From Clostridia bacterium (GTDB lineage Bacteria; Bacillota; Clostridia; RGIG6154), in the NCBI GenBank assembly GCA_045660065.1, contig JAZRDC010000030.1:35-64034 (forward strand): a DNA stretch of 64,000 nt, read 5' to 3'. Position numbers and translations under genes: made by a program. Positions 1,917-42,700 of this stretch are shown here, in pieces. Each line of letters begins with the position of its first letter. Position 1 is the first letter of the stretch. Under the pieces are notes generated by a model. It made no database searches and was not told the origin of the DNA. It saw only the letters and a program-made list of their open reading frames with translations.

Positions 1917-1932
1917 CTCTTTTAAATATATT

Positions 1933-2886: not shown

Positions 2887-2901
2887 ATCATTTGTTCTCC
2901 T

Positions 2902-4263: not shown

Positions 4264-4264
4264 C

Positions 4265-5686: not shown

Positions 5687-5698
5687 TTAAAATTCTCC

Positions 5699-7903: not shown

Positions 7904-7998
7904 ACATCAATGTACCTTTCCGGAGAAAATTTCTCCCATTAAAAAGACATAAAAAGGGATTTAACATTATAAATCCCTTTTAAACTTTATGTGATAGA

Positions 7999-12041: not shown

Positions 12042-12073
12042 AAACTTTTGAAAAAGTTTAAGGAGGAATATTT

Positions 12074-14361: not shown

Positions 14362-14385
14362 TTCAGGACTAAAAAGGAGTATTAA

Positions 14386-15837: not shown

Positions 15838-15855
15838 AAAGGACATTTTAATTAA

Positions 15856-18267: not shown

Positions 18268-18354
18268 GGAATGTTAAAAATGCCCAGAGCGCAAAAAGGC
18301 GATGATTATTATAGCAGGTTAGCTTGAAAAATATAATAAGCATACTGAAAGAAG

Positions 18355-18385
18355 AAAAATCGCGGATAAATTCGCGATTTTTCCT
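18355..18385 (+). terminator. Rho-independent terminator after glgP
   Basis: Hairpin aaATCGCG-gataaatt-CGCGATtttt followed by a T-run. Confidence 0.6.
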
Positions 18386-18570
18386 TTTATTCAGCCTTTT
18401 TGCTACGAAAAAACTTCACCTCTCGGCGTATACACCATACGCCTTCGGGTACCCAAACACCAAAGGAAGCCTTTGGCGTTTGTTCAGTTTTTCCGTTCTG
18501 AACATTTTTTCCTATTCCCTGGCGAGAATGTAAAAACTCAGAGAGTTTTTTGATTTAATGCGAGGTAGTA

Positions 18571-20391
18571 ATGAGAATCTTATTTGACAGTAAAAATTTA
18601 ATACACAAAAATCCTTTTGGGGCGCTAAAAGAAAATCAGGGGTGCGAGTTTAACATTCATATTCCTGAAAGTTGTCAGACCAAAGAGGTTTATATTGTTT
18701 TTGAAACTGATGATGGTTTTTACAAGTCATTTCCATTGGTAAAAAAAGAAACAAGGGATTTTTATGATATTTTCGGTGGGAATATTGCAATTCCTGACAG
18801 GGGGCTTTACTTTTACTATTTTGAAGTAAAGACCAACGGTTCTGATTTTATGCTCTACAAGGAGGGACAAGCCGATACTAACATCGGTGTTGGTGAAAAG
18901 TGGCAACTTACCTGCTTTAAAGAAGGCTATGATGTGCCCGGTTGGGCAAAAGGTGCGGTGTACTATCAGATTTTCCCCGACAGATTTAATATTTCGGGGC
19001 AAAATGATTTGTCTGAAAAATTAGGCCCTTTTACAATTCACCAAAATACTGATGAATGTCCTTATTATTTGCCTGTAGACGGTGAAATTTTAAATAACGA
19101 TTTTTATGGCGGTACTTTAAAGGGTATAGAAGAAAAACTTTCTTACCTTGAAGATTTGGGGGTAAGTGTTATATACTTAAATCCAATATTTATGGCTTAT
19201 TCAAACCACCGCTATGATACCTGCGATTATAAAAAAATTGATCCTATGCTTGGCAGTGAAGATGACTTTGTAAGTCTTTGTGAAAATGCTCATAAAAGAG
19301 GTATGAAAATCATTTTAGACGGAGTTTTTTCACATACCGGAAGCGACAGCGTTTATTTTGACAAGAAAAATCGTTTTGGTACAGGTGCTTATACTAACGA
19401 TACATCAAGATATAAAAAATGGTACAAATTCAAAAATTACCCCAATGAATACGACAGTTGGTGGGGGATTGACACACTTCCTGCAATTGACAAAACTAAC
19501 GAAGATTACATAAGTTATCTGATTGAAGAAGAAAACAGTGTTATTGAGTATTGGCTGAAAAAAGGTGCAGACGGATATCGTTTAGATGTTGCAGACGAGT
19601 TAGGAAGCGAGTTTATTGAAAGGCTTTCTAAAAAAGTCAAGGCAGTAAATCCTGATGCTATTGTTATGGGGGAAGTGTGGGAAGATGCTTCAAACAAGGT
19701 GAGTTACGGAGTAAGGCAGAAATATCTTCAGGGCAGTCAACTTGACTCTGTTATGAACTATCCCTTTAAAAACGGAATTATAAATTTATTGCTTGGAAAT
19801 ACAAGTATTTCAGGGTTTGAAAATATGGTTATGACCATTTGTGAAAACTATCCAAAGCCCATACTTGATTCTGTTATGAATTTACTGTCAACTCACGATA
19901 CTCCGAGAATTTTAACTATTTTAGGTGAAAGTGATTTTTCAATTTCAAGAGAGCAAAAAGCCGAAAGTAAATTAGAAGGCAAAATGCTTCATCTTGCTTA
20001 TGAAAGACTTTTCTGTGCACTTTTCCTTGAGTTTATGCTCCCAGGTAGCCCTTGTATATATTACGGCGACGAAATTGGTATGCAAGGCTTTGAGGACCCA
20101 TTTAACAGAAGATTTTTTGACTGGTCAAAAACAGGCGGTATGCTTGGTGAGTTCTGCAAGAATTTGTCAAAACTTAAAAATGAGTATGATGCTTTGAAAA
20201 CAGGTGATATAAGTTTTTGCTCTGAGGGCGATGTTCTTAAATTCGCAAGAGATAATATTGAGTGCATTTTAAATTTAGGAAGTGAGCCGATAGAGGTACA
20301 AAAAGATGTGCTTATTTCCAAAAACTCTGAATGTTTTGGCGAAAAAAGATATATTTTAAAGCACGGATTTTGTGCATATATTAAATCTTGA
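18571..20391 (+). CDS. GH13 alpha-amylase-family glycosidase (neopullulanase/cyclomaltodextrinase-like, with N-terminal domain)
   Basis: GH13 conserved regions DGVFSHTG, GYRLDVADEL, MGEVWED and LLSTHDTPR, 606 aa. Confidence 0.8.
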   Translation: MRILFDSKNLIHKNPFGALKENQGCEFNIHIPESCQTKEVYIVFETDDGFYKSFPLVKKETRDFYDIFGGNIAIPDRGLYFYYFEVKTNGSDFMLYKEGQADTNIGVGEKWQLTCFKEGYDVPGWAKGAVYYQIFPDRFNISGQNDLSEKLGPFTIHQNTDECPYYLPVDGEILNNDFYGGTLKGIEEKLSYLEDLGVSVIYLNPIFMAYSNHRYDTCDYKKIDPMLGSEDDFVSLCENAHKRGMKIILDGVFSHTGSDSVYFDKKNRFGTGAYTNDTSRYKKWYKFKNYPNEYDSWWGIDTLPAIDKTNEDYISYLIEEENSVIEYWLKKGADGYRLDVADELGSEFIERLSKKVKAVNPDAIVMGEVWEDASNKVSYGVRQKYLQGSQLDSVMNYPFKNGIINLLLGNTSISGFENMVMTICENYPKPILDSVMNLLSTHDTPRILTILGESDFSISREQKAESKLEGKMLHLAYERLFCALFLEFMLPGSPCIYYGDEIGMQGFEDPFNRRFFDWSKTGGMLGEFCKNLSKLKNEYDALKTGDISFCSEGDVLKFARDNIECILNLGSEPIEVQKDVLISKNSECFGEKRYILKHGFCAYIKS

Positions 20392-24109: not shown

Positions 24110-24140
24110 AAAAAGCAGTCAGTTGACTGCTTTTTTTCTG
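24110..24140. terminator. Bidirectional terminator between the hlyIII-like (+) and vanZ-like (-) genes
   Basis: aaaaaAGCAGTCAgttgACTGCTttttttt. Confidence 0.6.
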
Positions 24141-24637
24141 CTTATTAAACAAATTATAAAAACAACAATCAGAATTCCTGCGATGCTTCCTGACAGGTCG
24201 ATTAAAACATCTGTTACCTGACCACTTCTGCCGGGTACGAAAATCTGATGGACTTCGTCACTTATTGCATACAAAAGGCAAAAGACAAGTGAAATAAGAG
24301 CATCTTTTTGTATAAAATGGCTTCCTTTTTTAATAAATGTAAGGTTTGCACTTATAAAGGCACATATTCCTAAAATTGCAAACAGAGTAAAATGGGCGAT
24401 TTTTCTGATTGTTTTTTCCCATTTTTGCTCAAGTACTTTTTTCTTTTTTGCAGAAATTTTCTTGTTTTTGGTAACAGCATTTACGATTTTCTTTGTAATC
24501 CCGCTGCTTGTCTTTTTTGATTGGGTTGCAGGTTGAGCCGAAAAATAAAAAATTGATGCCATTGTAAGCAATGTGAAGAAATATGCTATTATTCTTTTTA
24601 CCCAAAGATTTGGTTTGGTTCCTGAAATCATAATCAA
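24119..24637 (-). CDS. VanZ-like family membrane protein
   Basis: ISDEVHQIFVPGRSGQVTDVLIDLSGSIAG is a VanZ-family signature. Confidence 0.7.
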   Translation of the reverse strand: MIMISGTKPNLWVKRIIAYFFTLLTMASIFYFSAQPATQSKKTSSGITKKIVNAVTKNKKISAKKKKVLEQKWEKTIRKIAHFTLFAILGICAFISANLTFIKKGSHFIQKDALISLVFCLLYAISDEVHQIFVPGRSGQVTDVLIDLSGSIAGILIVVFIICLISRKKAVN

Positions 24638-25083
24638 TCCTCGTCAAATACAGGTTCAACGAAAACAAACATCAACTGACCGATTTTTATAAGATCGCCT
24701 GTTTTGATTGCACAAGGAGCATCACCTAACTGCTCACCGTTTACAAATGTTCCGTTGGTACTGTTGTTGTCTACTAAAGTCCACATATCGTGAGATTTCA
24801 AAAACTGCACATGGACTGTGGACATAAATGGATCGGGGATAATAATGTTGTTTTTAGCCCCTCTGCCTACTGTGAATTTATTTTTTATACTGTAACTTTC
24901 TTCAACTCTGAACGGAACTGATTTTATTCTGTTCATAAGTTTGATGTAAGGGTTGTCATCTACTACTGTTCCCATGCGTGAGTGTTTTATGTCAAGATAA
25001 ATAAGCCTTATTATGCTGAACATAAAAAAGTATATGGCAGTTATAAAAAGATATTTTAAAAGACCGGATACTATCTCGTACAT
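24634..25083 (-). CDS. FHA-domain protein with an N-terminal TM helix
   Basis: The C-terminal segment TVGRGAKNNIIIPDPFMSTVHVQF...STNGTFVNGEQL fits the FHA domain. The stop overlaps the vanZ-like start. Confidence 0.7.
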   Translation of the reverse strand: MYEIVSGLLKYLFITAIYFFMFSIIRLIYLDIKHSRMGTVVDDNPYIKLMNRIKSVPFRVEESYSIKNKFTVGRGAKNNIIIPDPFMSTVHVQFLKSHDMWTLVDNNSTNGTFVNGEQLGDAPCAIKTGDLIKIGQLMFVFVEPVFDED

Positions 25084-26732: not shown

Positions 26733-26804
26733 CAAATCAGACAGCCTCTGTGGTATGTGGGGCTGTCTTGCGATATATTCTTGTAAAAAATATAAAAAAA
26801 TACT

Positions 26805-26832
26805 TGATTTTAGAAAATAAGTATGCTATAAT
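26805..26832 (+). promoter_or_regulatory. Sigma-A-type promoter of the RiPP-like operon
   Basis: TTGATT, a 16-nt spacer, then TATAAT. It lies just downstream of the M23 gene terminator (26745-26772). Confidence 0.55.
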
Positions 26833-26835
26833 CAT

Positions 26836-26870
26836 TGTACATAGGTATAACTATGTACTTTTATGTACCA
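26836..26870 (+). promoter_or_regulatory. Palindromic operator overlapping the transcription start (TGTACATAG-N6-CTATGTAC plus a third TATGTAC half-site)
   Basis: Inverted repeat with an 8 of 9 match, located 4-38 nt downstream of the -10 box. Confidence 0.5.
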
Positions 26871-26891
26871 ATTTTTTTAGAGGGTGAACAG

Positions 26892-27155
26892 ATGCGTCTT
26901 AAAGATGGTTTTTTGTTAAGAAAAGTTGCAGGTGAATTTGTTGTAGTTCCCACAGGGGATGCTATGGTGAACTTCAAGGCAATGATTACGCTTAACGAAA
27001 CCGGTGCTTTTTTGTGGGAAGCACTCAAAGAAGAAAAGACAGAAGATGACCTTGTTTCAGCACTCCTTGGTGAGTACGATGTGGACGAGGCAACTGCTAA
27101 AGAAGATGTAGGCGGATTTGTTAATCTTTTAAAAGAAAAGAATTTACTGGTATGA
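26892..27155 (+). CDS. PqqD-family RiPP recognition element (RRE), stand-alone
   Basis: 87 aa: MRLKDGFLLRKVAGEFVVVPTGDAMVNFKAMITLNETGAFLWEALKEEKTEDDLVSALLGEYDVDEATAKEDVGGFVNLL, the PqqD/RRE winged-helix signature. The start was trimmed to the Met with a GAGGGTG RBS. Confidence 0.8.
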   Translation: MRLKDGFLLRKVAGEFVVVPTGDAMVNFKAMITLNETGAFLWEALKEEKTEDDLVSALLGEYDVDEATAKEDVGGFVNLLKEKNLLV

Positions 27156-27604
27156 AAAAAGTTTTAAGTACAAAAGACCTTATGCCGCTTATAAGCGATA
27201 TTTTAAAAACTGCTGAGCGTGTAAGGTTTACAGTGAAGGGAAACAGTATGTATCCTTTAATCCGCGGCGGCCATGATGAGGTTGAAGTGGTTAAGTGCGA
27301 TAGTATCGGCAAGTACGATATTGTGCTTTATAAAAGAGCAAACGGAGCATATGTTCTTCACAGAGTCTTAAAAAAGCAAGACGGTGCTTTGTCAATAGCA
27401 GGAGATTTTGAACAGGAACTTGAACATCCTGTGTATGAAAATCAGGTTATTGCCAAGGTTGATAATATAATAAGAGCAAGCGGCAGAATTATTCCCTGCA
27501 GCAACAAGGTGTATAAATTATACTGTGTTGTATGGTCAGTGGCTCTTAAAAACAGACACAAGATACTTAAGGTGCTTAAAAAATTGAGGCGGTGGTGGCT
27601 TTGA
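27152..27604 (+). CDS. ER/archaeal-type (S26B, SipW/Sec11-like) signal-peptidase-like serine peptidase
   Basis: Box B GNSMYP, box C YDIVLY, box D VLHRVL (His in place of the P-type Lys) and box E AGDF. It has no N-terminal TM. Its ATG overlaps the PqqD stop (ATGA). Confidence 0.65.
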   Translation: MKKVLSTKDLMPLISDILKTAERVRFTVKGNSMYPLIRGGHDEVEVVKCDSIGKYDIVLYKRANGAYVLHRVLKKQDGALSIAGDFEQELEHPVYENQVIAKVDNIIRASGRIIPCSNKVYKLYCVVWSVALKNRHKILKVLKKLRRWWL

Positions 27605-29262
27605 AAAAAACAGACGTCGCTAAAAATTGGTTTTTTAAAAATATCTTAGATTTTGGCGGAGGGGTTTTTGTTCTCACCGCAATATCAATTCTGATAAATG
27701 TATCAGGTGTCGGATTTGCAATAGCATCTCAAAGACTTTTGGATGTTGCATCAAAGTCAATGAGCGGCAACTTGTTCAAAGAAGCAGGAATACTGGTTTT
27801 CTTAGTCGTGCTTCAACTTGTTTTGCAAATTATCCTCTCAAAGTGCTATGTTAAAACAAACGCACAGGTGAGAATTAAAATAAAAACAGACCTTTTCCGT
27901 GATGTTGTAAGAAAAGACCTTACAGAGGTTAATTGTTACCACTCGGGCGAACTGGTCAACAGGCTCTCTGCCGATGTTAATACCGTGGCAGGAGCGGTGG
28001 TGGATATTCTTCCTACGGCGCTTTCGCTGTCAATAGGAGTGGCGCTTAGTTTTATAGTTTTGTTTAAACTTGACCCGGTGTATGCCATTATTTATTTAAT
28101 AGTAGCACCTTTAGCACTCCTTACAGCAAGAATATTCAGAAGAAAACTTAAAGATCTGCATAAAGAGTCTGCTCAGTCAGACGGTAAAGTAAAAGCATTT
28201 ATGCAGGAATGTTTAAGAAATCTGTTGGTTGTGAAGGCTTTTCAGAAAGAAGAGCATATGACCGACAAGTGCAATGCTTATCAACTTGTTAACTACAAGG
28301 TTTTGATAAAGAAAAACAATGTAAGTATTTTGGCTAATGTAATGTTCTTTTTGTCCATTACTGCAGGATATTACTTAACATTGGTCTGGGGAGCGTATAA
28401 GCTTTCCATCGGACTTATGACTTTTGGTGAGATTGTGGCAATGCTTGAACTTGTTTCACAAATTCAATCGCCGCTTAAGTCATTGTCATCACTGTTTCCA
28501 CAGTATTATTCAGCACTGGCATCATCTGAAAGAATTTTAGAACTTGAAAGTTTGCCTGATGAATTAAAACTCAATCAAGGCGGGGCAAATGGATTTTCAA
28601 AACTTGTTATGGAAAATGTATCATTTGCTTATGATGATAAAAAAGTGTTTGAAAATGTATCCTGTGAAATAGAAAAAGGCGACATCATCGGAATTTGCGG
28701 TGAGTCGGGAATTGGAAAAAGCACTCTTATTAAACTCGTTTTAGGTGTGCTTACGCCGGATAGCGGCGAAATTTACATAAAAGACCAAAGTGGTCTTAAA
28801 GTATCGGTTGATACAGAAACGAGAAACATATTTTCATATGTGCCACAGGGCAACCTGATATTGTCCGGCACTATCGCAGAGAATGTGGTTTTCGGATCTG
28901 ACAACATAGATTTACAACTGGTTGAAAAAGTAATTCAGGTGTCGCAGCTTGATGAACTTATCAGTCAGTTACCGGCAAAACTTGATACTGTTTTGGGTGA
29001 AGGAGGCCTTGGGCTTTCGGAAGGACAGGTACAGCGATTATCTATCGCAAGGGCATTGTATCGGAATTCAGAAGTTCTGTTGCTTGATGAAGCAACATCG
29101 GCGCTTGACCGCGAAACTGAAATCAGGGTGTTGAAGGAAATCAGAGAAATGGGCAAAACATGTTTGTTCATTACTCACCGTTTGGAAGCACTTTCTAGTT
29201 GCAGCAAGCTACTAAGTGTAAAAGACGGGAAAGTTTCAATCGACAGGCAGGAAATTTTATAA
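27592..29262 (+). CDS. Fused ABC exporter (TMD-NBD) of the peptide/bacteriocin-export type
   Basis: Six TM helices, Walker A GESGIGKST, signature LSEGQVQRL and Walker B LLLDEATS. The start overlaps the upstream peptidase gene. Confidence 0.85.
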   Translation: MVALKKTDVAKNWFFKNILDFGGGVFVLTAISILINVSGVGFAIASQRLLDVASKSMSGNLFKEAGILVFLVVLQLVLQIILSKCYVKTNAQVRIKIKTDLFRDVVRKDLTEVNCYHSGELVNRLSADVNTVAGAVVDILPTALSLSIGVALSFIVLFKLDPVYAIIYLIVAPLALLTARIFRRKLKDLHKESAQSDGKVKAFMQECLRNLLVVKAFQKEEHMTDKCNAYQLVNYKVLIKKNNVSILANVMFFLSITAGYYLTLVWGAYKLSIGLMTFGEIVAMLELVSQIQSPLKSLSSLFPQYYSALASSERILELESLPDELKLNQGGANGFSKLVMENVSFAYDDKKVFENVSCEIEKGDIIGICGESGIGKSTLIKLVLGVLTPDSGEIYIKDQSGLKVSVDTETRNIFSYVPQGNLILSGTIAENVVFGSDNIDLQLVEKVIQVSQLDELISQLPAKLDTVLGEGGLGLSEGQVQRLSIARALYRNSEVLLLDEATSALDRETEIRVLKEIREMGKTCLFITHRLEALSSCSKLLSVKDGKVSIDRQEIL

Positions 29263-29284
29263 AGTTTGTTTGGGAGGAATAAAG

Positions 29285-30217
29285 ATGAAATGTAAGAGAA
29301 TTTTCAAAGTAGCGAGCGCGCTCGCATTGACTGTAGCTTTGTTAGTATCTTCAGCTGTTGTTTCATTTGCTGCAACTTATACAACAACAACTACTTATAT
29401 TGATCAGAATACTATCGAAGTTACATCAACTGCTGTTGGTCTCAACAAAGGCGATATGGCTACTTATGTTGCTTACAATAACGACGGCTTTACAGAAGGT
29501 AACGCAGTTTACATCGACCAGGCAACAGCAGACGAAACCGGAGAAGTTGAATTTAAATATCAGACAGATCTTGATGATTTAAAAGCAACTGTTAAATTCG
29601 GTGGTTCAACAGAAAGTGCAGCTCAGGATGCTATACTTGGCGGTTACAATGTTAACATTAAAGTTGACGGCGTAGATGCAGGTACAGTTAAAGTTGCAGA
29701 AGTAGCTGCAGAATACGAAGGTGATCTCGCAAGAGAAATCCCTGTTGAACTTGATGCAAGTAAAGTAGTTGATAAAGTTACAGTAAATGGCGCAGAAGTA
29801 GCTTGGTATGTTAAAGACAAAGCTGTAGTTATTTACTCTAATGCTATCAAGGCTGATGGTGCAACTGTTGAAATTGAAACAGCAGCTGCAAAAGCAGTTA
29901 CACTTGTTCTCGGTGCTGTTAAGTCAGAAGCTGCTAATACAGTTACTGCATTTGCTAAAGCAACATGCGGTGCGTATGCAAACTATGGTATCTTAATCGG
30001 TGGTAATGCTACTCTCACAGAAGAAGTAGTTAGCTGGGACGCAGCAGAAGATTATTCTAAAGCTGTTAAATTACCTGCACTTGGTATGAGCAAAGACGGT
30101 ATGTTCTGTGTTGAAGTTACAGACGAAGCTCTTGTAGCAGGTACAGAATACAAAGTTGCAGCTTATGCAGGCGAAGAAGTTACAGATGCAAAAGCAGTAA
30201 CAGTAAAAGTACAGTAA
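29285..30217 (+). CDS. Secreted Ala/Val/Thr-rich protein of unknown function (Sec signal peptide)
   Basis: MKCKRIFKVASALALTVALLVSSAVVSFA|ATYTTTTTY..., with a GGGAGGA RBS. No recognisable domain. Confidence 0.6.
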   Translation: MKCKRIFKVASALALTVALLVSSAVVSFAATYTTTTTYIDQNTIEVTSTAVGLNKGDMATYVAYNNDGFTEGNAVYIDQATADETGEVEFKYQTDLDDLKATVKFGGSTESAAQDAILGGYNVNIKVDGVDAGTVKVAEVAAEYEGDLAREIPVELDASKVVDKVTVNGAEVAWYVKDKAVVIYSNAIKADGATVEIETAAAKAVTLVLGAVKSEAANTVTAFAKATCGAYANYGILIGGNATLTEEVVSWDAAEDYSKAVKLPALGMSKDGMFCVEVTDEALVAGTEYKVAAYAGEEVTDAKAVTVKVQ

Positions 30218-30263
30218 TTAAGCGACTGTATCAATAACGATACAAATTCAGGAGGTAAATTCT

Positions 30264-30428
30264 ATGAAAAATTATCAGAAACCTGTTTTAGAGGTTGTTG
30301 AATTAGCAGTTGCTGAAAATATCGCTGCATTAGTACCTAAGACTATCTATAAAAGATCAGCAGGTGCTAAACTCGCTCAGCAGGGCGTAAAAATGTACGA
30401 CATGAAAGCTGACGAAATTATAAGCTAA
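30264..30428 (+). CDS. 54-aa precursor-like peptide with a lasso-type leader motif and a C-terminal Ser. It is not in the ORF track because it is under 60 aa.
   Basis: Strong RBS AGGAGGT 8 nt upstream. Translation: MKNYQKPVLEVVELAVAENIAALVPKTIYKRSAGAKLAQQGVKMYDMKADEIIS. The N-terminus matches the Firmicutes lasso-leader motif MK.Y.KP.LEV that is bound by PqqD RREs. The C-terminal part is cationic and amphipathic. Confidence 0.6.
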   Translation: MKNYQKPVLEVVELAVAENIAALVPKTIYKRSAGAKLAQQGVKMYDMKADEIIS

Positions 30429-30470
30429 TTTTTAGAACTGCAAAATTTAATTAAATAAAAATTTGAGAGG

Positions 30471-31361
30471 ATGTTCACTTTTATTATGCAATATACTGTC
30501 GCAGGTTTAAATATTGATATTATCAGTGAGCATCCTTCTTACATTTTTATGAGAATGAAAGACTATGAAAGCACTTTTTCGGGGGAAGCAGACTTTACAG
30601 TCAGGTGTAAAGAAAACAAAAATATCTCGCTCCCCGAGGATTTTGTGCAGATTGGTGAAAGAGTCGGCAGATGGCTCTGGATTAAAAAGAAGGATGGCAC
30701 ACTTGGTGCTTATATTAAATACTCAGACCTTGAGCAAATCGCAGCTTATGTAAGTTGGGACAAGGATTTTAAAAACATTGAACTTGAGGTTTTGGATTTA
30801 GAACCTTTCGGTGGAATGGCAATAGAACAAAGAATGTTTTATTTGCTCGGTGATGTTTTTACTTACACAGTTTTAAGCCGCGGCGCAGGAGTTTTTCATT
30901 CCTCTGCTATCAGTTATAAGAGCAGCGGAATTTTGTTGTCTGCACCGTCGGGTACGGGTAAATCAACCCACGCAGAACTCTGGAAGACGGTTTATGGGGA
31001 AGATGTTATTCATTTTAACGACGATACCCCCGTACTTAAAGTAGAAAATAATACAGTTTATGCCTACGGTACTCCGTGGAGCGGAAAAACTGCTATAAAT
31101 AAAAATATAAAAGTGCCCCTTAAGGCGATTATAAGCCTTGACAGGGCACAGGAAAACTCGGTAAAAAGACTTATGGGATTAGACGCTTTTTACAGAGTGT
31201 TCAACGAATTCAGGAAGCCCCCTGAGGGTGGACTTTTAGATAATTGTTTAGCACTTATTGAAAATGTTTTGGATAAAGTTCCTGTTTATGAACTTTTGTG
31301 CAACAAAGACCAGAGTGCAGCAATTACACTTCACAAAGCATTAGGCTTTGACAAAAATTAA
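30471..31361 (+). CDS. HPr kinase/phosphorylase C-terminal-domain-like Ser kinase (RiPP tailoring kinase)
   Basis: P-loop LLSAPSGTGKST at ~aa 160, 296 aa. This family occurs as the precursor C-terminal Ser kinase in Firmicutes lasso clusters. The exact start is uncertain (30471 or 30486). Confidence 0.65.
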   Translation: MFTFIMQYTVAGLNIDIISEHPSYIFMRMKDYESTFSGEADFTVRCKENKNISLPEDFVQIGERVGRWLWIKKKDGTLGAYIKYSDLEQIAAYVSWDKDFKNIELEVLDLEPFGGMAIEQRMFYLLGDVFTYTVLSRGAGVFHSSAISYKSSGILLSAPSGTGKSTHAELWKTVYGEDVIHFNDDTPVLKVENNTVYAYGTPWSGKTAINKNIKVPLKAIISLDRAQENSVKRLMGLDAFYRVFNEFRKPPEGGLLDNCLALIENVLDKVPVYELLCNKDQSAAITLHKALGFDKN

Positions 31362-31378
31362 TATTAAGGGTGAAATAT

Positions 31379-32989
31379 ATGAAAAAGAAACTGTTTTTTG
31401 GTGCGGTTATCACAACCGTTCTTTGCACAAGTCTGACTTTTTCAGCATTTGCTGCTAAATTTTCAGACCTGTCAGACAGCCATTGGGCTTACAAAAATAT
31501 TATGGAATTAAACTCACAGGGCGTAATTAACGGCTACTCTGACGGAACATTTCGTCCTGAGGCTCAGGTTACAAGAGCGGAGTTTGTAAAATTAATTGGA
31601 ACAACCAACGAAAAAAAATCAGAGGATTTCGCAGATCTTCCAAAAACTCACTGGGCATATGAATATGTTATGAACTCAGGGGTTGATATGGAAAGAAGAA
31701 ATTTCCGTCCTGATGAAAATATTACAAGAGCAGAAGTTTTAGACATTCTCTGGAATAGATACGGAACTGAAACAGATGCTGTTGTTCCCGGAATTATTGC
31801 AAATCAGCACGAAGAAATAAATGCCATCGCCTGGGGCTATTCATACGGTCTTATGATTGGTGATGACGGCATAAATTTAAGATTATCTGACGATTTGTCA
31901 AGAGCAGAAGCAGTAACACTTATCCTTCGTTCAAGAAAAATCGACACAACTAATCAGAAACTTTTAGCAGATAATGTAGCAGACAATCTTTTGAAAGATT
32001 TGTTCAATTCAACAGGGATTTTTGACTCTCAGTACAACGAAAACGCTACAATGACTATCGGTGAAATTTCAAGAGCGGCACTTAGAATTGCTCACGGAAC
32101 ACATTCGATTCTTTACAACAAAGATATGTATGTGGAAACTCCAAATTACGAAGATGAATATGCAAACGATGTTGCATATATGGCAAAGCAGATTTTCGGT
32201 GAAAGCAACAATAATAAAGAATATGCAACAAAAGCGGCAAATCAGCAGGAAGTAATCTCTGCTCTTATGTACGGCTATATGTTCAAAGCGAACGAATCTC
32301 CTGTTATCGGCAGAGTTGACGATTACTACAAAGATGCAACAGTTGACAAAAAGGAACTTATGAAAAATATGCTCCTTACTTATACAAAACGCAGAGGTGT
32401 GTTCTCAAGCGCCGATGGACTTTTACATAATGACAAACCTGTAACACACAAAGAAATTGCATCAATTCTTTTGCAACTTGACAATCTTACAGGCTCACAG
32501 ATGAGTTACTCAGGCGGCAAAGAGCAGGATGAAAAATTATCATTAAATGCGGCTTTATACCAAAAAGCAGATGGGGATTTCAAAACACTGCTTAAAGGAA
32601 TGCCTGAAGTAGTTTACACAACACCGATTGAAGGCTCTGCAACTGAATTTTTAACATTCTCAAAGGACTTTTTTGAAATATTTGCAACTCTTTCTGACGG
32701 TATTGTGAACAAAGCCAAAGTAAAGGGCGCAGAAATTGCAATCAGAGTTTATCCTACACTTGTATCAAATGCGGGAAACGAAGTAATTATGAGATCAAAG
32801 GTTTACATTGTTTCAAATCCGAACGGATTGGGACTTGGCGAAATCATTGGCAAGTGCGATATGGCAAATGATGTTACCGCCCGTGAAAACGGAACATACA
32901 TTGTTGATATCTCAACCAACGGACCGCTTGATGATATGTATATAAACCCTGCAAACGCAAGTTTAAGACGCGTTATCTGGAACGACTAA
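31379..32989 (+). CDS. SLH-domain (S-layer homology) cell-surface protein
   Basis: Signal peptide, then triplicated SLH motifs (FSDLSDSHWAYKNIMEL..., FADLPKTHWAYEYVM...). Confidence 0.8.
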   Translation: MKKKLFFGAVITTVLCTSLTFSAFAAKFSDLSDSHWAYKNIMELNSQGVINGYSDGTFRPEAQVTRAEFVKLIGTTNEKKSEDFADLPKTHWAYEYVMNSGVDMERRNFRPDENITRAEVLDILWNRYGTETDAVVPGIIANQHEEINAIAWGYSYGLMIGDDGINLRLSDDLSRAEAVTLILRSRKIDTTNQKLLADNVADNLLKDLFNSTGIFDSQYNENATMTIGEISRAALRIAHGTHSILYNKDMYVETPNYEDEYANDVAYMAKQIFGESNNNKEYATKAANQQEVISALMYGYMFKANESPVIGRVDDYYKDATVDKKELMKNMLLTYTKRRGVFSSADGLLHNDKPVTHKEIASILLQLDNLTGSQMSYSGGKEQDEKLSLNAALYQKADGDFKTLLKGMPEVVYTTPIEGSATEFLTFSKDFFEIFATLSDGIVNKAKVKGAEIAIRVYPTLVSNAGNEVIMRSKVYIVSNPNGLGLGEIIGKCDMANDVTARENGTYIVDISTNGPLDDMYINPANASLRRVIWND

Positions 32990-33024
32990 GTTAAACATAT
33001 TCTTGAGGAAAGGAAACATATACA

Positions 33025-33717
33025 ATGGAAGAAAGAGAAATTGATATATTTGAACTTATACAAGCGGTCTTTAAAAGATGGTGGCTGGTGCTTGTAATTA
33101 CAATAGTAATGGGTAGCGTAGGTTTTGGGTATTCAAAATTTGCAATAACTCCTCTTTACTCTGCAAAGGGTACACTTTATATCACTATCGATAACACAGC
33201 AGCGGCTCAGGGCGGAACAAGTCTTGACTACAACTCGATTCTTGCAGCGCAGGAACTTACAAACACATATTCACTTATCTTGTCAAGTAACACATTTTAT
33301 AAAATAGTTGCTGCCGAAAGCGGACTTGACTATTCATACAAAGATATTTCTAAAATGGTTACAATGGGTAACGAAAACGAAAGTGAAATTATGAGCATTG
33401 TTGCAAGTTGTCCAAACAGAGAACATGCGGCAATAATCGTTGAAACAATCTTAAACAACGCACAGGCAGAAATTTCCCGCGTTGTTGTTGGCGGAAGCGT
33501 AAGGATTATCGATCATCCTGAACTTCCAAACGGTCATTCTTATCCAAATGTTACTAAAAACACATTCCTTATGTTGATTTTAGGATTTATTTTAGGATGT
33601 GCTTTAGCAATTTTCATTGAATGGCTTGACGATACAATCAAAGACGGTGATGATGTCATGAAATTTGATATTCCTGTATTAGCGGAAATTCCACTTTTAG
33701 AAGTTAAAAGTGAATAA
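33025..33717 (+). CDS. Wzz/CpsC/YwqC-like polysaccharide co-polymerase (chain-length determinant). Orphan: no BY-kinase partner is nearby.
   Basis: N- and C-terminal TM helices with a periplasmic Wzz-like segment, and N-terminus FELIQAVFKRWWLVLVITIVMG. Confidence 0.7.
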   Translation: MEEREIDIFELIQAVFKRWWLVLVITIVMGSVGFGYSKFAITPLYSAKGTLYITIDNTAAAQGGTSLDYNSILAAQELTNTYSLILSSNTFYKIVAAESGLDYSYKDISKMVTMGNENESEIMSIVASCPNREHAAIIVETILNNAQAEISRVVVGGSVRIIDHPELPNGHSYPNVTKNTFLMLILGFILGCALAIFIEWLDDTIKDGDDVMKFDIPVLAEIPLLEVKSE

Positions 33718-33737
33718 GATAGAAAGGATGAATTTGG

Positions 33738-36700
33738 ATGAGGAAGTGTATTAGAGCGCTTATCAGCCTGGTGCTGGCGTTGGTGATGATTACGCCGGTT
33801 GCCTTGCCTGTTGCGGCGGACAGTTCTTATGGGTTTATTGATTTCCCAACGGGCTGGTCTGCTCCGGCAATGGCTCATGCCGTTGCAAACGGAATAATTT
33901 ACGGAAAAACTGAAAATACTATCGCTCCGGGAGACAATCTTACAAGAGCGGAAATGGGCACGATTATCAATCGTGCTTTTGGTGCTACTATAGGAAAGGA
34001 TATTTCAGCCTTTTCTGATGTGTCAGCATCTGCGTGGTATTACGAAGAAATCAAAAAATCTTATAATATGCAGACTATGTACGGTGATGAGGGCGGAACT
34101 ATGCGTCCTGATGCGCCGATCATAAGAGAAGAAGCCATAGCTATCGTTGCAAGAGCTATGGTTTTAAGTGGTTATTCAGCATCTGAACTTAATAAGTTCA
34201 ATGACAAGGCTGAAGTTGCAGGTTGGGCTGTTGATCCTGTTGCATCAATGGTAGCAAACGGTTATGTAAACGGCGATGACAAGTCAAACCTTAACCCTAA
34301 GGCATATATCACAAGAGAAGAATTTGCACAGCTTATTTACAACATCATTAAGCATTACTATAACAAAGACGCTAAAAGCGAAAGTTATCAGGGTAATTTA
34401 ATGCTCAACAAACCTGATATTTCTCTTGAAAATATCACAGTTAACGGCGACCTTATTTTAGGCGACGGCGTTGGTACAAGCAAAATTACACTTACAAATA
34501 TCGATATCAAAGGCAGACTTTTAGTAAGAGGTGCTGCTCAGATAACACTCAAAAATGTTACAACTGCAAAAGGCGTTGTTGTGAAAAATGTTAACGGAAC
34601 AGTTCATTTTGACAACTATCGTGATGAAAAAGTTTTCGACGGAGTAGTTGAACATACAACCGTAACCTATAAACAGCGCGCTACCGGCGGTGGCGGCGGT
34701 GGAGGTGGTGGAGGTGGAACACCTCCTGCTCCTACAACCGCAGGTTACAAGGTTGAACACTATCAGGAAGCATTAGACGGCAGTTTTGTGATTTTTGAAA
34801 CTGATGTTCTTTCAGGTACAGTAAATTCAAGCGTTACTGCTGTTGCTAAAGCATACGAAGGCTTTGCAGAAGATGCAACCAATGCATCAAGAGTACCAAC
34901 AGGTATTGTTGCGACAGACGGCACACTTGTACTCAAACTTTACTACACAAGAAACAGTTATAATATCGTGTATAACTTGGGCGAAGCAGGCACAGATGTT
35001 GTGTTGAGCCTTAAATACGGTGCAAATGTAAGCCTTGAAGCACCAACAGTTACAGCCCCTGCTGGTAAATACTTTGCAGGTTGGTTTGACGCGCCCGTTG
35101 GCGGAAATCAGATTATATCATTAACAGTTCCTGCAAACGGAACAACAATTTATGCGCAGTGGTCAACAACTCCACCTGCAGTTGTGAATTTTACCGTTGA
35201 ACACTACAAAGAAAATGTTGACGGTACGTATTCTTCACCTGCAGAGACTGAAACACTGTCAGCAACTGTGGCAACTGTTGTAAAAGCGCAGGATTATGAT
35301 AAAACATACACAGATTTTGATGTAGATCTGACAGCAAGTGTGGACGTTGCAGTAGCAGCAGACGGAAGCACAGTTCTTAAAATTTACTATACAAGAAAAA
35401 GTTATAACATCGTATATAACTTTGGTGAAGCAGGTGGAAGCACTACAGTAAGCCTTAAATTTGAGGCTGATGTTGACCTTTCAACTCCTGCGGTTACAGC
35501 CCCTGCAGGCAAATACTTTGCAGGTTGGTTTGATGCACCTGTTGGCGGAAATCTTATTACAACATTAACAGTGCCATCAGGCGGAACAACAATTTACGCG
35601 CAGTGGTCAACAACTCCAACTACTATTGTAAACTTCACAGTTAAGCACCATCAGCAGAACATTTTGGATGATTTGTACCCTGCAAATCCATTTGAAACAG
35701 AGACAAAATCCATTGCGGCAGGCAGTACTGTAAAAGCACAGGATTATGCAAAGACTTACACAGGATTTACTGCTGATTTAGCAAACAGCCCTGATGTAAC
35801 AGTTGCAGCAGATGGAAGCACAGTTCTTAACATTTACTATGTGAGAAATACTTATACTATCACATACAACTACGGTGAAGCAGGCGGAGAAGGTTCTGTA
35901 ACACTTAAATACGGTGCGGCAGTAGATCTTTCAGCGCCACCGGTTGTTGCACCTTCAGGCAAAACCTTTGCAGGTTGGTTTGACGCGCCTGTTGGCGGAA
36001 ACCAGATTACAGATTTAACTGTTCCTGAAAACGGAAAAACAATATACGCACAGTGGTCAGATATTTCACCTGTAAACTTTACTGTAAGACACTTCCAGCA
36101 GAATATTGAAGACGATTTGTATCCTTCAATAGCATTTGAAGAAGAAACAAAATCTGCAATTCCGGGTTTTGTTGCAAAGGCTCAGGATTATGCTAAGGCA
36201 TACACAGACTTTACTGCTGTTTTAGCAAACAGCCCTGATGTAACAGTTGAGGCAAATGGAAGCACAATCCTTAATATTTACTATACAAGAAATACTTATA
36301 CTATCACATACAACTATGGTGAAGCAGGCGGAGAAGGTTCAGTAACACTTAAATTCGGCGCAGATGTAGACCTTTCAGCACCGGCAGTTACTGCACCTGC
36401 AGGCAAATACTTTGCAGGTTGGTTTGACGCACCTGTTGGCGGAACACAGATTGGCTCATTGACAATGCCATCAGGCGGTGCAACAATCTATGCACAGTGG
36501 TCAGATATCCCACCTGTAAACTTTACTGTAAGACACTTCCAGCAGAATATTGAAGATGATTTGTATCCTTCAATAGCATTTGAAGAAGAAACAAAATCTG
36601 CAATTCCGGGCGCTACTGTATCAGCAGCTAGGTTTGATAAATCTTACGCAGGATTTACTGCAGATTTAATAAACAGTCCTGATGTAACAGTTGAGGCAAA

Positions 36701-39700
36701 TGGAAGCACAATCCTTAACATTTACTACACAAGAAACACTTATACTATCACATACAACTATGGTGAAGCAGGCGGTGAAGGTTCAGTAACACTTAAATAC
36801 GGTGCGGCAGTAGACCTTTCAGCACCGGCAGTTACTGCACCTGCAGACAAAACATTTGCAGGCTGGTTTGATGCACCTGTTGGTGGCAATCAGGTTTCAT
36901 CTTTGACAGTTCCTGTAAACGGAAAAACAATATACGCACAGTGGTCAGACATTCCACCTGTAAACTTTACTGTAAGACACTTCCAGCAGAATATCGAAGA
37001 CGATTTGTACCCTTCAGTAGCATTTGAAGAAGAAACAAAATCTGCAATTCCAGGTCATACAGTAAGAGCGATTGACTTTGCTAAAACATATGAAGGCTTT
37101 GCTACTGATTTAGCAAACAGTCCTGATGTAACAGTTGAGGCAAACGGAAATACAGTTCTTAACATTTATTATGTAAGAAACACTTATACTATCACATATA
37201 ACTATGGTGAAGCAGGCGGAGAAGGTTCTGTAACACTTAAATACGGTGCGGCAATAGATCTTTCAGCACCGACAGTTACTGCACCTGCAGGCAAATACTT
37301 TGCAGGTTGGTATGATGCACCTGTTGGTGGAAATCAGGTTTCATCTTTGACAGTTCCTGTAAACGGCACAACAATTTATGCACAGTGGTCAGATAATCCT
37401 ACATATATGGTTTACCACTATAAAGCAGATTTAGACGGAAATTATCCTGACAACTTGCTTGTTATTTCTACAATACCTGCAGAGTATGGTGCACAAATTA
37501 CAGCAACTCCTGGCAATTTTGAAGGGTTCCATGAAAACACAACACATCCTGACAGAGTAACAAGCGGTATAAACGATGGTACACTTGTACTTAAACTTTT
37601 CTACGACAGAAACACATATACTGTTTCATTTGACGCAGGTCAGGGAACTGCTGTTTCAGATGTAGAGTACAAATACGAACAGCCATTTGGCAGTGTTGTA
37701 TCAACAAGAGAGTACTACATTTTAGATGGTTGGTACAAAGACTTGAATGACCCTGCATCAAAGGTAGAAGACTACCATAAAGCAGGTAGAGAATTTACAG
37801 GCGGTACTTTGTACGCTAAATGGGAAATCGACAGAGCTGCAATCGGCGATGTTGTATTTACTGCAAGTGTTACAGATGAAGACCTTGATAACGACGAATT
37901 CTCAATTTTGGTTGATTTATCAAACAACTTAATTGGTATTTCTGAGTACGGACTTACTCTTAACTGGGATAACACCCAGGTTAAACCGATTTTGGTTGGC
38001 GGTAAAGTTGTTACTGACTTAAATGGTCTTGGCGGAAATGCTATTACAACATCAGCAGATTCTGTTACAACAGAAGATGGTGCGGCTGCGCTCAGTTCTG
38101 TTACAGTAAACTGGAACAGTGTTGCACCTGTAGCAGGAAATGCAAATCTTTTCAAAGTAAGATTTAAAATTACAAATACTTTGGCAGATAAAGACCACGA
38201 AACTCCATCTTTGAATATGTTCAGAATGATGAGAGCGGCGAATATTGATGGTCTTATGGACTTACCATTTACAATTACAAGCGTATCTGTTTCAATTATC
38301 TCTGAAACAGGGGAAGTAATTCCTCTTGATAATTCAACTAAAGATACAGGCCTTGCACCTTACAAAATTGAACATTACAAAGAAAACACAGAAGATACTG
38401 CATATTCTTTGGCATATACAGAGTATGGCCACGATATTGTAGGCAAAGTTGTGTTTATCAGTGAAGGTAAGGCTGAATATATAGCAGAAGGATTTATATA
38501 CGAAGAAGGAAAGTCAGCAAACAAGATAGTTATTACAGAATCAGGTGCTGTAATTAAACTTTATTACGCAAGACCTCGTTTTGATGTAGAATTTGACTAT
38601 CAGGGGGCTACAAGAGTTGAAGGTCCTGCATCTGTAAGCCTTAAACTTGGTGCAACAATTAAAAATCATTTTCCTGAAGAAAATTCATTTGCAAAAGATG
38701 ACTATAACTTCGGCGGTTGGTTCACCCAGCCTGAAGGTAAAGGTCAGAACGCAGGAGATGGACTCGTTGTTCCTAAAGGCGGTATAAAACTTTATGCTAA
38801 CTGGGTTCAGACACCATATAAAGTTGAACACTATCAGATGGCATTAGATGGCGTTAACGCTAAACTTGTTGCAACTGATACAGGTTACGCAAAAGCAGGA
38901 ACAACAGTTACTGCAACTGCAAAAACTTATTTAGGTTTTGATGCTCCATCTGTAATGCCAAGTGAAAAAGTTGCAGCAGACGGTTCAACAGTTATCAAAG
39001 TTTACTACACAAGAAAAACATACACCATCAACTATAACTTTGACGGTGGTACAGCAGTAGGTGCTTATGAAACAACATTCAAGTATGGTCAGTCTATTCC
39101 TTTGGCAAAAGCCGAAAAAGAAGAAGACGATGTAGAATATCAGTTGATAGGATGGCGTGCAAATTCTGAAACCGGTCCTGTTGTAACCAATACTTCAAAT
39201 ATTGACCATATTTTAAGAACACTTACAGATGATGTTTTGAATCTTTACGCATGGTGGGTTCCGGTTACAGCAAGTACTTCAAAATATGTTGTAGAACACT
39301 ATAAAGAAGAATTGGACGGAACTTATCCTGAAGCGGCAACAGAAACAACTGAAGTGCAGTCAATTCAGATTCCTGCTACACTTAAAGTTTCTGAACTTAA
39401 AAAACCATACGAAGGATTTACAGTAGACGAAGCAAAGAGCAAAGATTTACCAATCACAGAAGAAGGATTCTTTACTCTTAAGATTTATTACACAAGAAAT
39501 GAATATACATTGAATTACGATTATTGCGATGCAGATGTATCAGGTGTTGCAAGTAACAAATTCAAGTATGGTCAGACAATTACACTTCCTGAAGAAGGAA
39601 CATACAGCAAGGAAGGATTTATCCCGACAGGTTGGTATAAGACAGATGTTTACATACCATCAAGCCTTGTTGACGAATCAACAAAGATTGAAGAAATTGT

Positions 39701-42700
39701 TAACATTTCTACATCAGATGAGGCAACAATTTATGTTAAATGGGATCAGTTCTTTACTGTAATATTTAATGAACGTGGTAATTTAAGACATACAAGTAAG
39801 GTATATCCAAAAGTTTCAGATACAGTTCCGCAGGCAGATATCGATTATGCTTACGGCGAACTTATTAACCCTTATGTTTTAGGATATCGTAAGGATGCGT
39901 CAGTTTCATCTATTTACGCAGAAAATCCGTATGAACACAAACTCTACGGTAACTGGTATTATTACGAAGATGGTAAGTATATCTTATTTACCGATGAAAC
40001 TGTTGTTAATAAAGATTTGACAGTAAGATATATGTTCAGAAAAGCAGGTCTGGAACTTAATATCGAAAAAATCAGTCAAATAATCGAGCCTATATTTGAA
40101 GTAACCTTTGAAGAAGACACAAGAATTCTTGACACATTAAAGGATGCTGCATTCTTGTTTGAAGAAAAACTTCTTGCGGCATATGGTGCGCTTGATGCAG
40201 GTGAAAAATTCAACAAGGTTAATGATAAACTTGTAGATTTGCTTACAGACAAGGGAATTGCCGTTGTTCCTGGCAGAATTTTTGCAGATGACGGTGAAAT
40301 CCTGAAACAGCATGTTGCATTCAACGCATTTTCATATCTTGAAGAAGAACAACTCAAGAAATCACTTGTTGAAGTTGTTAAAAAGACTTTGAAGGACGAT
40401 CCTTCAAAACTCATCGATATTATCGACGGAATGCTTAAAGAAAAAGACGAAAATGTTATCCAGATGATGGATGATATGCTTGTTTCAATGCTTTCAGGTT
40501 CTGATTCACAGAGAATTAAGGATATTATTGCTGAATCTGTTGAAAAAGCTGTTGCAAACGATACAACAGGCGAATTTAAAGAACAGATTAAAGGTATAAT
40601 TATCGCACAACTTGATGCAGGTAACACAACTGTTGAATCAAGTGTTAAAGATGCCGTAACCGATTACTTTATGAATAAGGGTAACGACGAAGCAATCAGA
40701 AAAATCGTTGGCGACCTTATTAATCAGGCATTTGCAACACAAGATGAAAACGATCCTATCAGAAAATTCATCAAAACTTATATTACTGACTACTTAAATA
40801 CAGAAGCAGGAAGCAAAGTTTTAGATGATATGATCAGAGATTTGGGCGAAAACCTCGATCCTGACAGTGATGAAGCAAAACCTGTTATCAAACTTATCCA
40901 CGATGTATTGGCAGGAAATATTCAATATCTTGAAGAAATTGTTGACGGTGTGATTGCAGACCTTAATCATCTTGAAGGTACAGAAATTTACAATGTTATT
41001 ACTGAAGCAATCACCGAAGAACTTATGAGCAACGAAGAAGAACTTAAGATGATGGTTGAAGCAATCGGTGATGTTGATGTTACTGACTTCTTAACAGAAT
41101 TTATGGCAGACGATTATGCATTTAAAACTATCGTTGAAACAGTAGTTGCAGAACAGACAGTATTTGAAAGCATAATCAGCACATCACTTAATAATGATGA
41201 AGTGTTTGAAACACTTATCACTCAACTCAGCGGTGATGCAACCTTCTTTAATATGATGGTTGATGTTGCAATTTCAAACAATGCACTTATCAACAGTGTT
41301 AAAGGAACTATCATCAATGATGATGAAGCCCTTGTTAAAGTTATCAAGAGTGCTGCACAAAACGATCAGATCAAGCAGGAAATTATTGATAAACTCTTGT
41401 CTGATACAACAAGCGGTGGCACAATTGAAGAAATTCTTAAAGGCGGTATCGCAGGTACATCATATTATGATGAAGCATTGGCTACTGCAAAAACCAAAGT
41501 TGCCGGTATGATTAAAAACATTCTCGCAGGCGGTATTGACGAAAACAGCGAATACTGGACATATGTAGAAACAAAAGTTCAGGAACAGATTGATGCAGAA
41601 GTTGCAAAAATCAAGGCTGATCTTGCAGATGGTATTGACGAAACCAGCGAATACTGGCCATATGTAGAACAGACAGTTAAAGAACAGGTAGAAGCAAAGA
41701 AAGCAGAAATCAAAGCTGACCTTGCAAACGGTATTGACGAATTCAGCATCTACTGGCCATATGTAGAACAGACAGTTGAAGACCAGATTGCTGCAAAAGA
41801 AGCAGAAATCAAGGCTGAACTTGCAAACGGTATTGACGAAAACAGCCAGTATTGGAATTACATTTATCCGAATGTAAAAGAAAAAGCAGATGCTGAAATC
41901 GAAAATGTACTTACAGCAGGTATCGATGAAACTGATACATACTGGAATGCAGTATATCAGGCGGTTTTGGAACAGGCACAGGATTATATCACTGCAGGTA
42001 TAATTGATGAAAATGATGTTAAAACTGCTCTTAACAACGGACTTAGTTCAGATCCTATGTTTGCAGATATGAGTGCTGAAATCATTGTTTCTGCAAAAGA
42101 AAAAGCAGATGAAGAAATCAAAGGAGTACTTCAGAACCCTATTGATGAAAACAGTGAATACTGGACATATGTAGAAACAAAGGTTCAGGAACAGATTGAC
42201 GAAAAAGAAGCAGAAATCAAAGGTGTTCTTGCTAATGGTATTGATGAAACCAATACAGAATACTGGCCGCTTATCGAACCAAAAATCAACGAAAAGGTTG
42301 AAGAAGTAAAAGCGGATATTAAAGCCGATCTTGCAAATGGTATCGAAGAAGGCAGCGATTACTGGAACGAAATTTATCCAAAAGCCGTAGAAGAAGCAGA
42401 AAAAGAAGTTGAAAAAGTTCTTACATATGGTATGGCAAAAGATCATCCATACTGGAATCAGATTTATGATGCCGTTAAGGAATATATTGAAGATTCTGTT
42501 GTAACTGACTTTGATTCACAACTTGATAATGCTATGGCAGACCCTGTGCTTAAAGAAAAGATTAAGCAGTGGGCATCAGATGAAATTGCTGACGAAACTT
42601 CATCAATCAGAGGCTTCCTTGCAAATTACATCAAAGGTCTTGGTGCTGCAAATGCAACCAAGGAAGAAAAAGCACTTAAAGACACAATTATTGCATCTGT

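Follow-up and report, generated by a model that had tools for sequence, protein, structure and literature searches.

An HprK-like predicted peptide kinase in a clostridial operon resembling linear phosphopeptide gene clusters

Organization of the locus

The gene analysed here lies at positions 30471..31361 (+) of a 64,000-nucleotide stretch of DNA from a Clostridia bacterium (assembly GCA_045660065.1, contig JAZRDC010000030.1; the whole stretch is called the window hereafter) and encodes a predicted HprK-like peptide kinase of the ScmC/LppK type. It follows the gene for a 54-residue precursor peptide with a C-terminal Ser (30264..30428, +), which carries AGGAGG 8 nt before its ATG, and both belong to a gene set that resembles operons for peptides made on the ribosome and modified after translation (RiPPs). 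The open reading frame (ORF) of the kinase translates to 296 residues, including the P-loop sequence LLSAPSGTGKST, and has abundant homologues, which bears out an earlier note on this DNA, made from the letters alone, that had placed a P-loop protein here. With E-values down to 6e-183 among the homologues and matches to more than 1,000 clusters at 90% identity, we regard the gene as real. The family comprises at least 3,381 cluster representatives at 50% identity (E <= 1e-30), and relatives occur in at least 596 GTDB species genomes, nearly all of them Clostridia, with a few Paenibacillus and Erysipelotrichaceae. Which ATG serves as the start is ambiguous: GAGAGG stands directly before the one at 30471 and 15 nt 5' of a second at 30486, and a start at the latter gives the 291-residue form that is annotated in most homologues.

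Three genes further upstream encode proteins for recognition, cleavage and export. The first (26892..27155, +) specifies an 87-residue discrete RiPP recognition element (RRE) of the PqqD type, similar to LppB and B1 proteins (PF05402, E = 8e-20); its ORF, as called mechanically, begins at TTG 26835, and the nearest curated models are the lasso B1 chaperones, with scores below threshold. The second (27152..27604, +) encodes a cytoplasmic, LppS-like homologue of archaeal/ER-type signal peptidases (150 residues; TIGR02228, E = 2.7e-7), presumed to be the leader peptidase. Across 46 homologues of this peptidase, G30, S32, M33, P35, H70, R71 and G84-D85 are invariant and E91 nearly so, and the family has no N-terminal membrane anchor. 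The third (27592..29262, +) encodes a 556-residue, LppD-like ATP-binding cassette (ABC) exporter resembling MsbA (PF00664 and PF00005; TIGR02203 is the best NCBIfam match). Directly 5' of the precursor gene, in a position kept in loci of the window type, lies a gene for a secreted protein of 310 residues (29285..30217, +), predicted to consist of a signal peptide and three Ig-like beta-sandwich domains. Downstream of the kinase gene follow an SLH-domain protein (31370-32989, +) and a Wzz chain-length determinant (33025-33717, +), both of which are conserved on this side of the kinase gene in loci of the window type.

From 26835 to 44723 every gene lies on the + strand and either overlaps the next one or is separated from it by at most 46 nt. 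An overlap of 4 nt joins the PqqD gene to the peptidase gene (27152-27155), and one of 13 nt joins the latter to the ABC gene (27592-27604), which suggests that the genes for recognition, cleavage and export are translationally coupled. A candidate operon promoter is the region's best sigma-70-like match (26804..26832, +; TTGATT-17-TATAAT with an upstream TG), identified by its agreement with the consensus only. The earlier note had seen no hairpin between the precursor and kinase genes, and indeed no terminator-like site was found in the 42-nt spacer (30429-30470), whose RNA fold is no better than that of shuffled sequences (z = +1.17; 183 of 200 shuffles fold at least as well). Given this spacer, with its unremarkable fold, and the short gaps between genes on the same strand, co-transcription of precursor and kinase is plausible.

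Fold and catalytic residues of the kinase

The kinase consists of an N-terminal beta-rich domain of about 115 residues and a C-terminal P-loop domain. Its AlphaFold2 model (predicted local distance difference test score, pLDDT, 95.4) was matched by Foldseek to phosphoenolpyruvate carboxykinases (PEPCKs; E ~1e-6, template modelling score, TM, ~0.5 across both domains) and to the HPr kinase/phosphatase 1knx (E = 3e-6), while sequence and profile searches of PDB sequences gave generic P-loop matches only. In an alignment of 40 family members, H143, S157-A158, T162-G163-K164-S165-T166, W171, N183-D184-D185, P187, G200, P202-W203-S204-G205-K206, N210 and C277 are invariant. These residues include a Walker A motif, A158-x4-G163-K164-S165, and lie in part within a family-specific motif, G200-T-P-W-S-G-K206.

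Comparison with the kinases of lasso peptide clusters placed these residues in a catalytic context. Mutagenesis of BsfK has shown that the residues of its motif H148-G163-G166-G168-K169-S170-D186-D187 matter (2023 study, PMC10368454). We compared the family with an alignment of the ~100-residue core of 12 characterised or putative lasso kinases, taken from the supplement of that study (PMC10368454). By hhalign, the two profiles matched with 97.5% probability (E = 7e-12) over 76 columns, pairing H143, K164, S165, D184 and D185 with H148, K169, S170, D186 and D187 of BsfK, whereas a control against ABC ATPase domains reached 81% over 32 columns and covered the P-loop only. A plain hidden Markov model (HMM) of the lasso-kinase core was discarded as not discriminating, with 18.8 bits for the window kinase and up to 21.8 bits for ABC ATPases. 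Since this model failed to separate ABC ATPases, the relation to peptide kinases rests on the profile-profile result and the fold. The BsfK motif is kept at seven of eight positions (H143, A158, G161, G163, K164, S165, D184 and D185); at the first Gly the kinase has A158, which still fits the Walker A pattern [AG]x4GK[ST].

The kinase is thus a protein of the PEPCK/HPr-kinase fold with conserved catalytic residues. Fold, intact catalytic set and lasso-kinase profile match all agree with its earlier description as HPr-kinase-like, and a catalytically dead protein, recognizable by the loss of the conserved Asp and Lys outside the P-loop, is not what we found: the catalytic set of H143, K164, S165 and D184-D185 is intact. 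Like the lasso kinases PadeK, ThcoK, PsmK, SyanK and BsfK, it has two domains, a catalytic His some 115-150 residues into the chain, the motif H-x14-[G/A]-x2-G-x-G-K-S ... D-D, a partner PqqD/B1 protein and a substrate leader with YxxPxL. It differs from them in the spacer before D-D, which is 3 residues longer in the window family, in the family's own invariant GTPWSGK, and in its cluster, which has no lasso cyclase or B2 protease among the ORFs scanned (about 45 of the larger ones in the window).

Curated family models place the kinase less closely. The best NCBIfam match is ScmC (TIGR04249; E = 2.7e-6), a conserved protein of the SynChlorMet radical-SAM cassette, followed by HprK-related kinase B (TIGR04355; E = 3e-3). 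ScmC proteins share the PqqD partner; however, the score of 26.9 bits compares with an equivalog cutoff of 125, and where the ScmC cassette has two radical SAM/SPASM proteins, the scan of window ORFs turned up no such gene. A Pfam scan returned nothing for the window kinase at E <= 0.1, including PF07475, the HprK/P model; as the library used lacks PF27840 ('ScmC'), this understates the catalogued families. Public pre-computed annotation assigns that new model to homologues of the kinase.

The fold and the P-loop, together with glycogen genes 10 kb upstream, might suggest a housekeeping HPr kinase/phosphorylase of carbon catabolite control beside an incidental small ORF. The profile check against PF07475 proposed in the earlier note came out negative, however: only two of 40 family members match it at E <= 1, and the best score among relatives is 17.5 bits, the cutoff being 33.3, so we rejected membership in that family. 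Beyond the shared PEPCK-like P-loop fold, searches of PDB sequences found no HprK, the family carries its own GTPWSGK motif, and operon context and substrate differ. With its tight cross-species linkage to genes for a PqqD protein, peptidase, exporter and precursor, described below, a housekeeping role appears next to negligible.

A conserved leader and a variable core

The precursor can be divided into a leader of approximately residues 1-31 (MKNYQKPVLEVVELAVAENIAALVPKTIYKR) and a variable core of approximately residues 32-54 that ends in an invariant Ser. The leader contains YxxPxL at positions 4-9 (Y4-Q-K-P7-V-L9), the motif by which lasso leaders bind the B1 recognition protein (PMC10368454), and the peptides of related loci begin M-K-x-Y-x-K-P-x-[LVI]-x-V-x-E-L. 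A database search yielded 41 close homologues, in which residues 1-31 are near-invariant (mean pairwise identity 98%) and the remaining 21-24 residues show about 53% pairwise identity. The terminal Ser that had been read from this one peptide is the last residue in 41 of 41, with Leu or Ile before it in 39. It is also the sole invariant Ser of the window-clade precursors, the other invariant hydroxyl residues being Tyr4 (an RRE contact), Thr27 and Tyr29.

Selection on the peptide is visible at the codon level. Compared with the window, the leaders of four syntenic relatives carry 4-8 synonymous and 0-2 nonsynonymous differences; they are 94-100% identical, with 70-88% identity in the neighbouring enzymes and 22-43% in the core. 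Because the leader codons differ mostly synonymously and the leader is more conserved than the enzymes, we consider the precursor a real gene under selection. A translated RiPP precursor whose C-terminal Ser is under constraint would be expected to show this pattern. NCBIfam and Pfam do not recognize these peptides, apart from one weak match of one relative to the paeninodin family (E = 0.19).

Some related loci contain two or three precursor genes, such as L042 (7618-7920, 11067-11240) and L086 (6951-7731). The three L042 peptides share EER[LMF]AGS and two carry paired Cys, suggesting a further sub-class, possibly with disulfides. In Kandleria vitulina, a 117-residue ORF with the same leader type (MNKPYIEIVRFDAEDVIATS; L060:4243-4596) lies 3.5 kb from the kinase gene, which suggests that much longer precursors occur in this group.

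Linkage of the kinase gene across related loci

To follow the gene neighbourhood, we assembled 82 non-redundant loci with a kinase homologue, 48 of which have at least 4.5 kb on both sides. Near the kinase gene, a PqqD gene was found in 62 of the 82 loci, a peptidase gene in 47 and an exporter gene in 32; the corresponding counts for the 48 well-flanked loci are 38, 31 and 24. Two gene orders recur. The window type runs PqqD, peptidase, ABC exporter, Ig-like protein, precursor, kinase, SLH, Wzz, while the commoner order is (precursor), kinase, PqqD, peptidase, (NTP_transf_5, in 15 loci), ABC exporter. No lasso-cyclase-like or B2-protease-like family recurs across the 82 loci. The kinase is genetically tied to the precursor and to the PqqD recognition protein.

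The kinase could in principle act on a sugar, a polysaccharide or the Ig-like or SLH protein, leaving the peptide to the PqqD protein, peptidase and exporter. Its fold is common to small-molecule kinases such as PEPCK, and in locus L003 the genes for kinase, peptide and Ig-like protein are neighbours of Wzz, CpsD and CpsB, and neither a PqqD nor a peptidase gene lies close by. Even there, however, the precursor gene still adjoins the kinase gene, the closest profile relatives are peptide kinases, and the pairing with PqqD is the most frequent linkage of all. We consider a non-peptide substrate highly improbable.

Resemblance to linear polyphosphorylated peptide clusters

The gene set resembles that of the 'linear polyphosphorylated peptides' (LPPs), described by Popov et al. 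(Nat Commun, May 2026; PMC13381572) in capsular-polysaccharide loci of Bacilli. LPP clusters comprise a precursor (lppA), an archaeal-type peptidase similar to signal peptidase I (SpI; LppS), a discrete RRE (LppB), an HprK-like kinase (LppK), an MsbA-like exporter (LppD) and a nucleoside triphosphate (NTP) transferase (LppN), and their precursors, of 35-200 residues, share the leader YxxPxVLxHQxIxFETxxS (PMC13381572). In B. subtilis, LppK places one to four phosphates on core Ser3 of LppA; the exchange S3A abolishes the modification, and S3T and S3Y are not accepted (PMC13381572). LppS cuts after T(-1), requires LppB and acts poorly on unphosphorylated precursor (PMC13381572).

Several features are common to the window operon and these clusters. 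Both have a discrete PqqD-type RRE adjoining an SpI-like peptidase with a Ser/His/acid triad, an MsbA-like exporter and a precursor with a YxxPx[V/L] leader and a variable C-terminus, in keeping with the N-terminal RRE-binding motif [Y/W]xxPx[L/V/I] of the LPP family, and neither has a macrolactam cyclase, for the window as judged from the ORFs scanned; both sit in cell-envelope or polysaccharide loci with VanZ as a recurrent neighbour. The supplementary domain table of the LPP study lists TIGR04249 (67), TIGR04352 (65) and TIGR04355 (11) under 'HprK kinase', TIGR02228 for SpI and TIGR02203 for the exporter; in LPP-only genomes, P. mucilaginosus 3016 among them, the one kinase present is of the TIGR04249 type (PMC13381572). 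The window kinase (TIGR04249/TIGR04355), peptidase (TIGR02228) and exporter (TIGR02203) match the models so listed. Window peptidase and LppS align at 26% identity (E = 1e-8), with S32, H70, G84-D85 and E91 corresponding to S29, H68, G86-D87 and D93.

The operon also departs from the described LPPs. Its gene order is different, its host belongs to the Clostridia rather than the Bacilli, its loci add the Ig-like secreted protein, the SLH protein and Wzz as conserved neighbours, and its precursor has an invariant C-terminal Ser. In the sequence similarity network (SSN) of the LPP study, the peptidase is not a member of cluster 1, to whose members it is 26-28% identical; it is closer to cluster 4 (Dehalobacter, Anaerocolumna; 38-41%) and cluster 9 (Ruminococcus; 34%). 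Likewise, the PqqD protein shares 45-51% identity with the RREs of clusters 4 and 9, compared with 33% for LppB and 30% for the lasso RRE PbaB1. In the study these two clusters are entered as SpI plus 'other' RRE, and their precursors as undetermined (PMC13381572). The one Paenibacillus locus of our set, from Paenibacillus doosanensis (L025), was considered as a bridge to characterised LPPs and rejected, as its peptidase and RRE are themselves SSN-4-like.

Anchoring the precursors on the Pro of YxxP, we further compared the region around the LPP acceptor. In LPP peptides, positions P+11, P+12 and P+15 are E, T and S (10/10, 10/10 and 9/10), where the window precursor has E, N and A (AENIAA vs FETxxS) and so lacks both the cleavage residue T(-1) and the Ser3 acceptor. 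Window-type precursors generally show E, N/D and Ala, with Ala at P+15 in 10 of 16 and no conserved Ser there, and short clostridial precursors have an acidic residue at P+11 and Ser at P+16 (12/14).

Weighing this evidence, we think it likely that the window protein is an ATP-dependent and RRE-dependent peptide kinase of an LPP-type operon for a linear phosphopeptide RiPP. By analogy with LppK, BsfK and PadeK, we infer its activity, the order of steps and the acceptor site as follows. The PqqD protein would bind the YxxPxL leader of the 54-residue precursor, and the kinase would then phosphorylate a hydroxyl residue of the bound peptide, possibly several times. The cytoplasmic signal-peptidase homologue would remove the leader, and the MsbA-like pump would export the linear phosphopeptide.

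A number of observations count against this assignment. Every curated-model match of the kinase lies far below its cutoff (26.9 vs 125 bits for TIGR04249) and PF07475 gives none, and the kinase is tied to LppK through family models, not sequence to sequence. Identity of the peptidase and RRE to LppS and LppB is no more than 26-33%, and both proteins group with SSN clusters 4 and 9, which the LPP paper left unanalysed. The precursor has Ala in place of the phosphoacceptor Ser and no FET cleavage motif, and the nucleotidyltransferase gene lppN was not found among the ORFs scanned. In addition, eight of the 48 well-flanked loci show no partner gene nearby, and a C-terminal Ser occurs in only about 10 of the 33 distinct precursors known from the wider family.

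Candidate acceptor residues

Characterised kinases point to two different kinds of site. Kinases of the PadeK type modify a C-terminal Ser and are largely indifferent to the remaining sequence of the peptide (PMC8498205); the window precursor, too, ends in Ser. BsfK, of the lasso system Bsf, phosphorylates core Ser3, depends on its B1 recognition protein and does not accept Tyr (PMC10368454). We rank the invariant C-terminal Ser54 first, ahead of Thr27 and Tyr29 of the invariant PKTIYK motif, because the LPP acceptor position is Ala, the characterised relatives prefer Ser and PadeK-type kinases recognize a C-terminal Ser. It is nevertheless a tentative choice. The earlier proposal of the C-terminal Ser as the phosphosite accordingly stands in part: with Ala at the Ser3-equivalent position and Ser terminal in all 41 close homologues, this residue is the best candidate, though no more than plausible. 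In the only characterised LPP and in the Bsf system, the target is core Ser3 and not the C-terminus.

The same system could instead direct its kinase to an internal residue, either Thr27 or Tyr29 of PKTIYK or a Ser or Thr early in the core. Both RRE-dependent kinases with a leader-proximal site, LppK and BsfK, act on core Ser3; all 41 homologues keep Thr27 and Tyr29, and [T/S]-x-Y-[K/N/D] is kept in divergent window-type precursors that do not end in Ser. However, LppK refuses Thr and Tyr and BsfK refuses Tyr, position 32, which directly follows the conserved stretch, can be any of S, T, A, E, G, K and D, and no Ser other than the terminal one is invariant in the window clade. We therefore regard an internal site as the less likely option.

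The expected linear product and its possible envelope role

The product expected from the operon is a phosphorylated linear RiPP, since the scan of window ORFs revealed no lasso cyclase. An Asn-synthase-like cyclase, a transglutaminase-like B2 protease, a nucleotidyltransferase (NTP_transf_5) and a radical SAM enzyme were all sought among the ORFs scanned and not found; the possibility of a lasso cluster with its cyclase elsewhere in the window was rejected on the same grounds. The earlier idea of a linear phosphorylated RiPP thus holds, in the light of this result and the LPP-type gene set. Its remark that such a product would be unusual does not, as the LPP family has already been described experimentally (PMC13381572).

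The concept of a linear phosphopeptide is thus already published. New here are a large clostridial sister group, an altered precursor, a gene set in which no nucleotidyltransferase was found and a fixed association with S-layer and capsule genes. LPPs were described in 2026 from ~126 peptidases, mostly of Bacilli (PMC13381572), and the sister group has a far wider distribution, in uncultured Clostridia of gut and rumen. It keeps the recognition protein, peptidase, kinase and exporter and has lost the canonical acceptor Ser and the nucleotidyltransferase. Having lost these two while retaining the enzymes, it offers a natural test of how such kinases choose their site.

As a further reading, the phosphate might serve as a handle or activating group for a further step, such as glycosylation or attachment to an envelope polymer, with the participation of the Ig-like, SLH and Wzz proteins. 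The nucleotidyltransferase of pseudomycoidin glycosylates the phosphate, NTP_transf_5 genes occur in 15 related loci, and LPP clusters sit in capsule loci. Syntenic SLH (19/82), Wzz (19/82) and Ig-like genes (9/82) mark loci of the window type. On the other hand, no nucleotidyltransferase or other transferase was found in the window operon, most related loci lack SLH as well as Wzz, and the synteny may reflect inheritance within a lineage, not function. We consider such a handle unlikely.

More speculatively still, the clostridial branch might be a functionally distinct relative of the LPPs, in which the acceptor has moved to the C-terminal Ser and the exported phosphopeptide works in the envelope together with the co-inherited Ig-like, SLH and Wzz proteins, for instance tethered by its phosphate to a polymer of wall or capsule, or as a matrix factor. 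This is a long shot, but if true it would provide the first clue to the function of the LPP class of RiPPs, whose final structure and biological role were left open in the paper describing them (PMC13381572). The fixed linkage to S-layer and capsule genes may also open a route to the function of phosphorylated linear peptides.

Surrounding genes

Among the large proteins of the operon, the Ig-like protein is the most divergent, with 51-60% identity among close relatives. It has no Pfam match, and a structure search with its model (pLDDT 81) returned only generic immunoglobulin-fold matches. Downstream of Wzz, an ORF of 3,661 residues (33738-44723) contains tandem repeats of ~145 residues and a run of 11 Gly; its orthologues in four related loci (L005 and L087-L089), which range from 2,007 to 4,636 residues, carry SLH and Listeria-Bacteroides (Flg_new) repeat domains. 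A protein of 515 residues encoded 3' of this ORF (44790-46337) matches SLH and Flg_new directly.

Upstream of the operon, a VanZ-like gene (24119-24637) and a gene for an FHA-domain protein (24634-25083) lie on the - strand. FHA domains bind phospho-Thr, and this neighbour may have a bearing on a phosphopeptide system or may be there by coincidence. A gene for an M23 peptidase lies between the pair and the operon, and the pair is conserved in L005. VanZ-like genes recur in 12 related loci and also appear in the neighbourhood table of the LPP paper. Further genes of the window include SecDF and two housekeeping clusters, a dcw cell-wall cluster (774-9885, -) with mraW, PBP, two Mur ligases, mraY and ftsW, and a glycogen operon (10170-20391, +) with glgB, glgC, glgD, glgA, glgP and an amylase gene.

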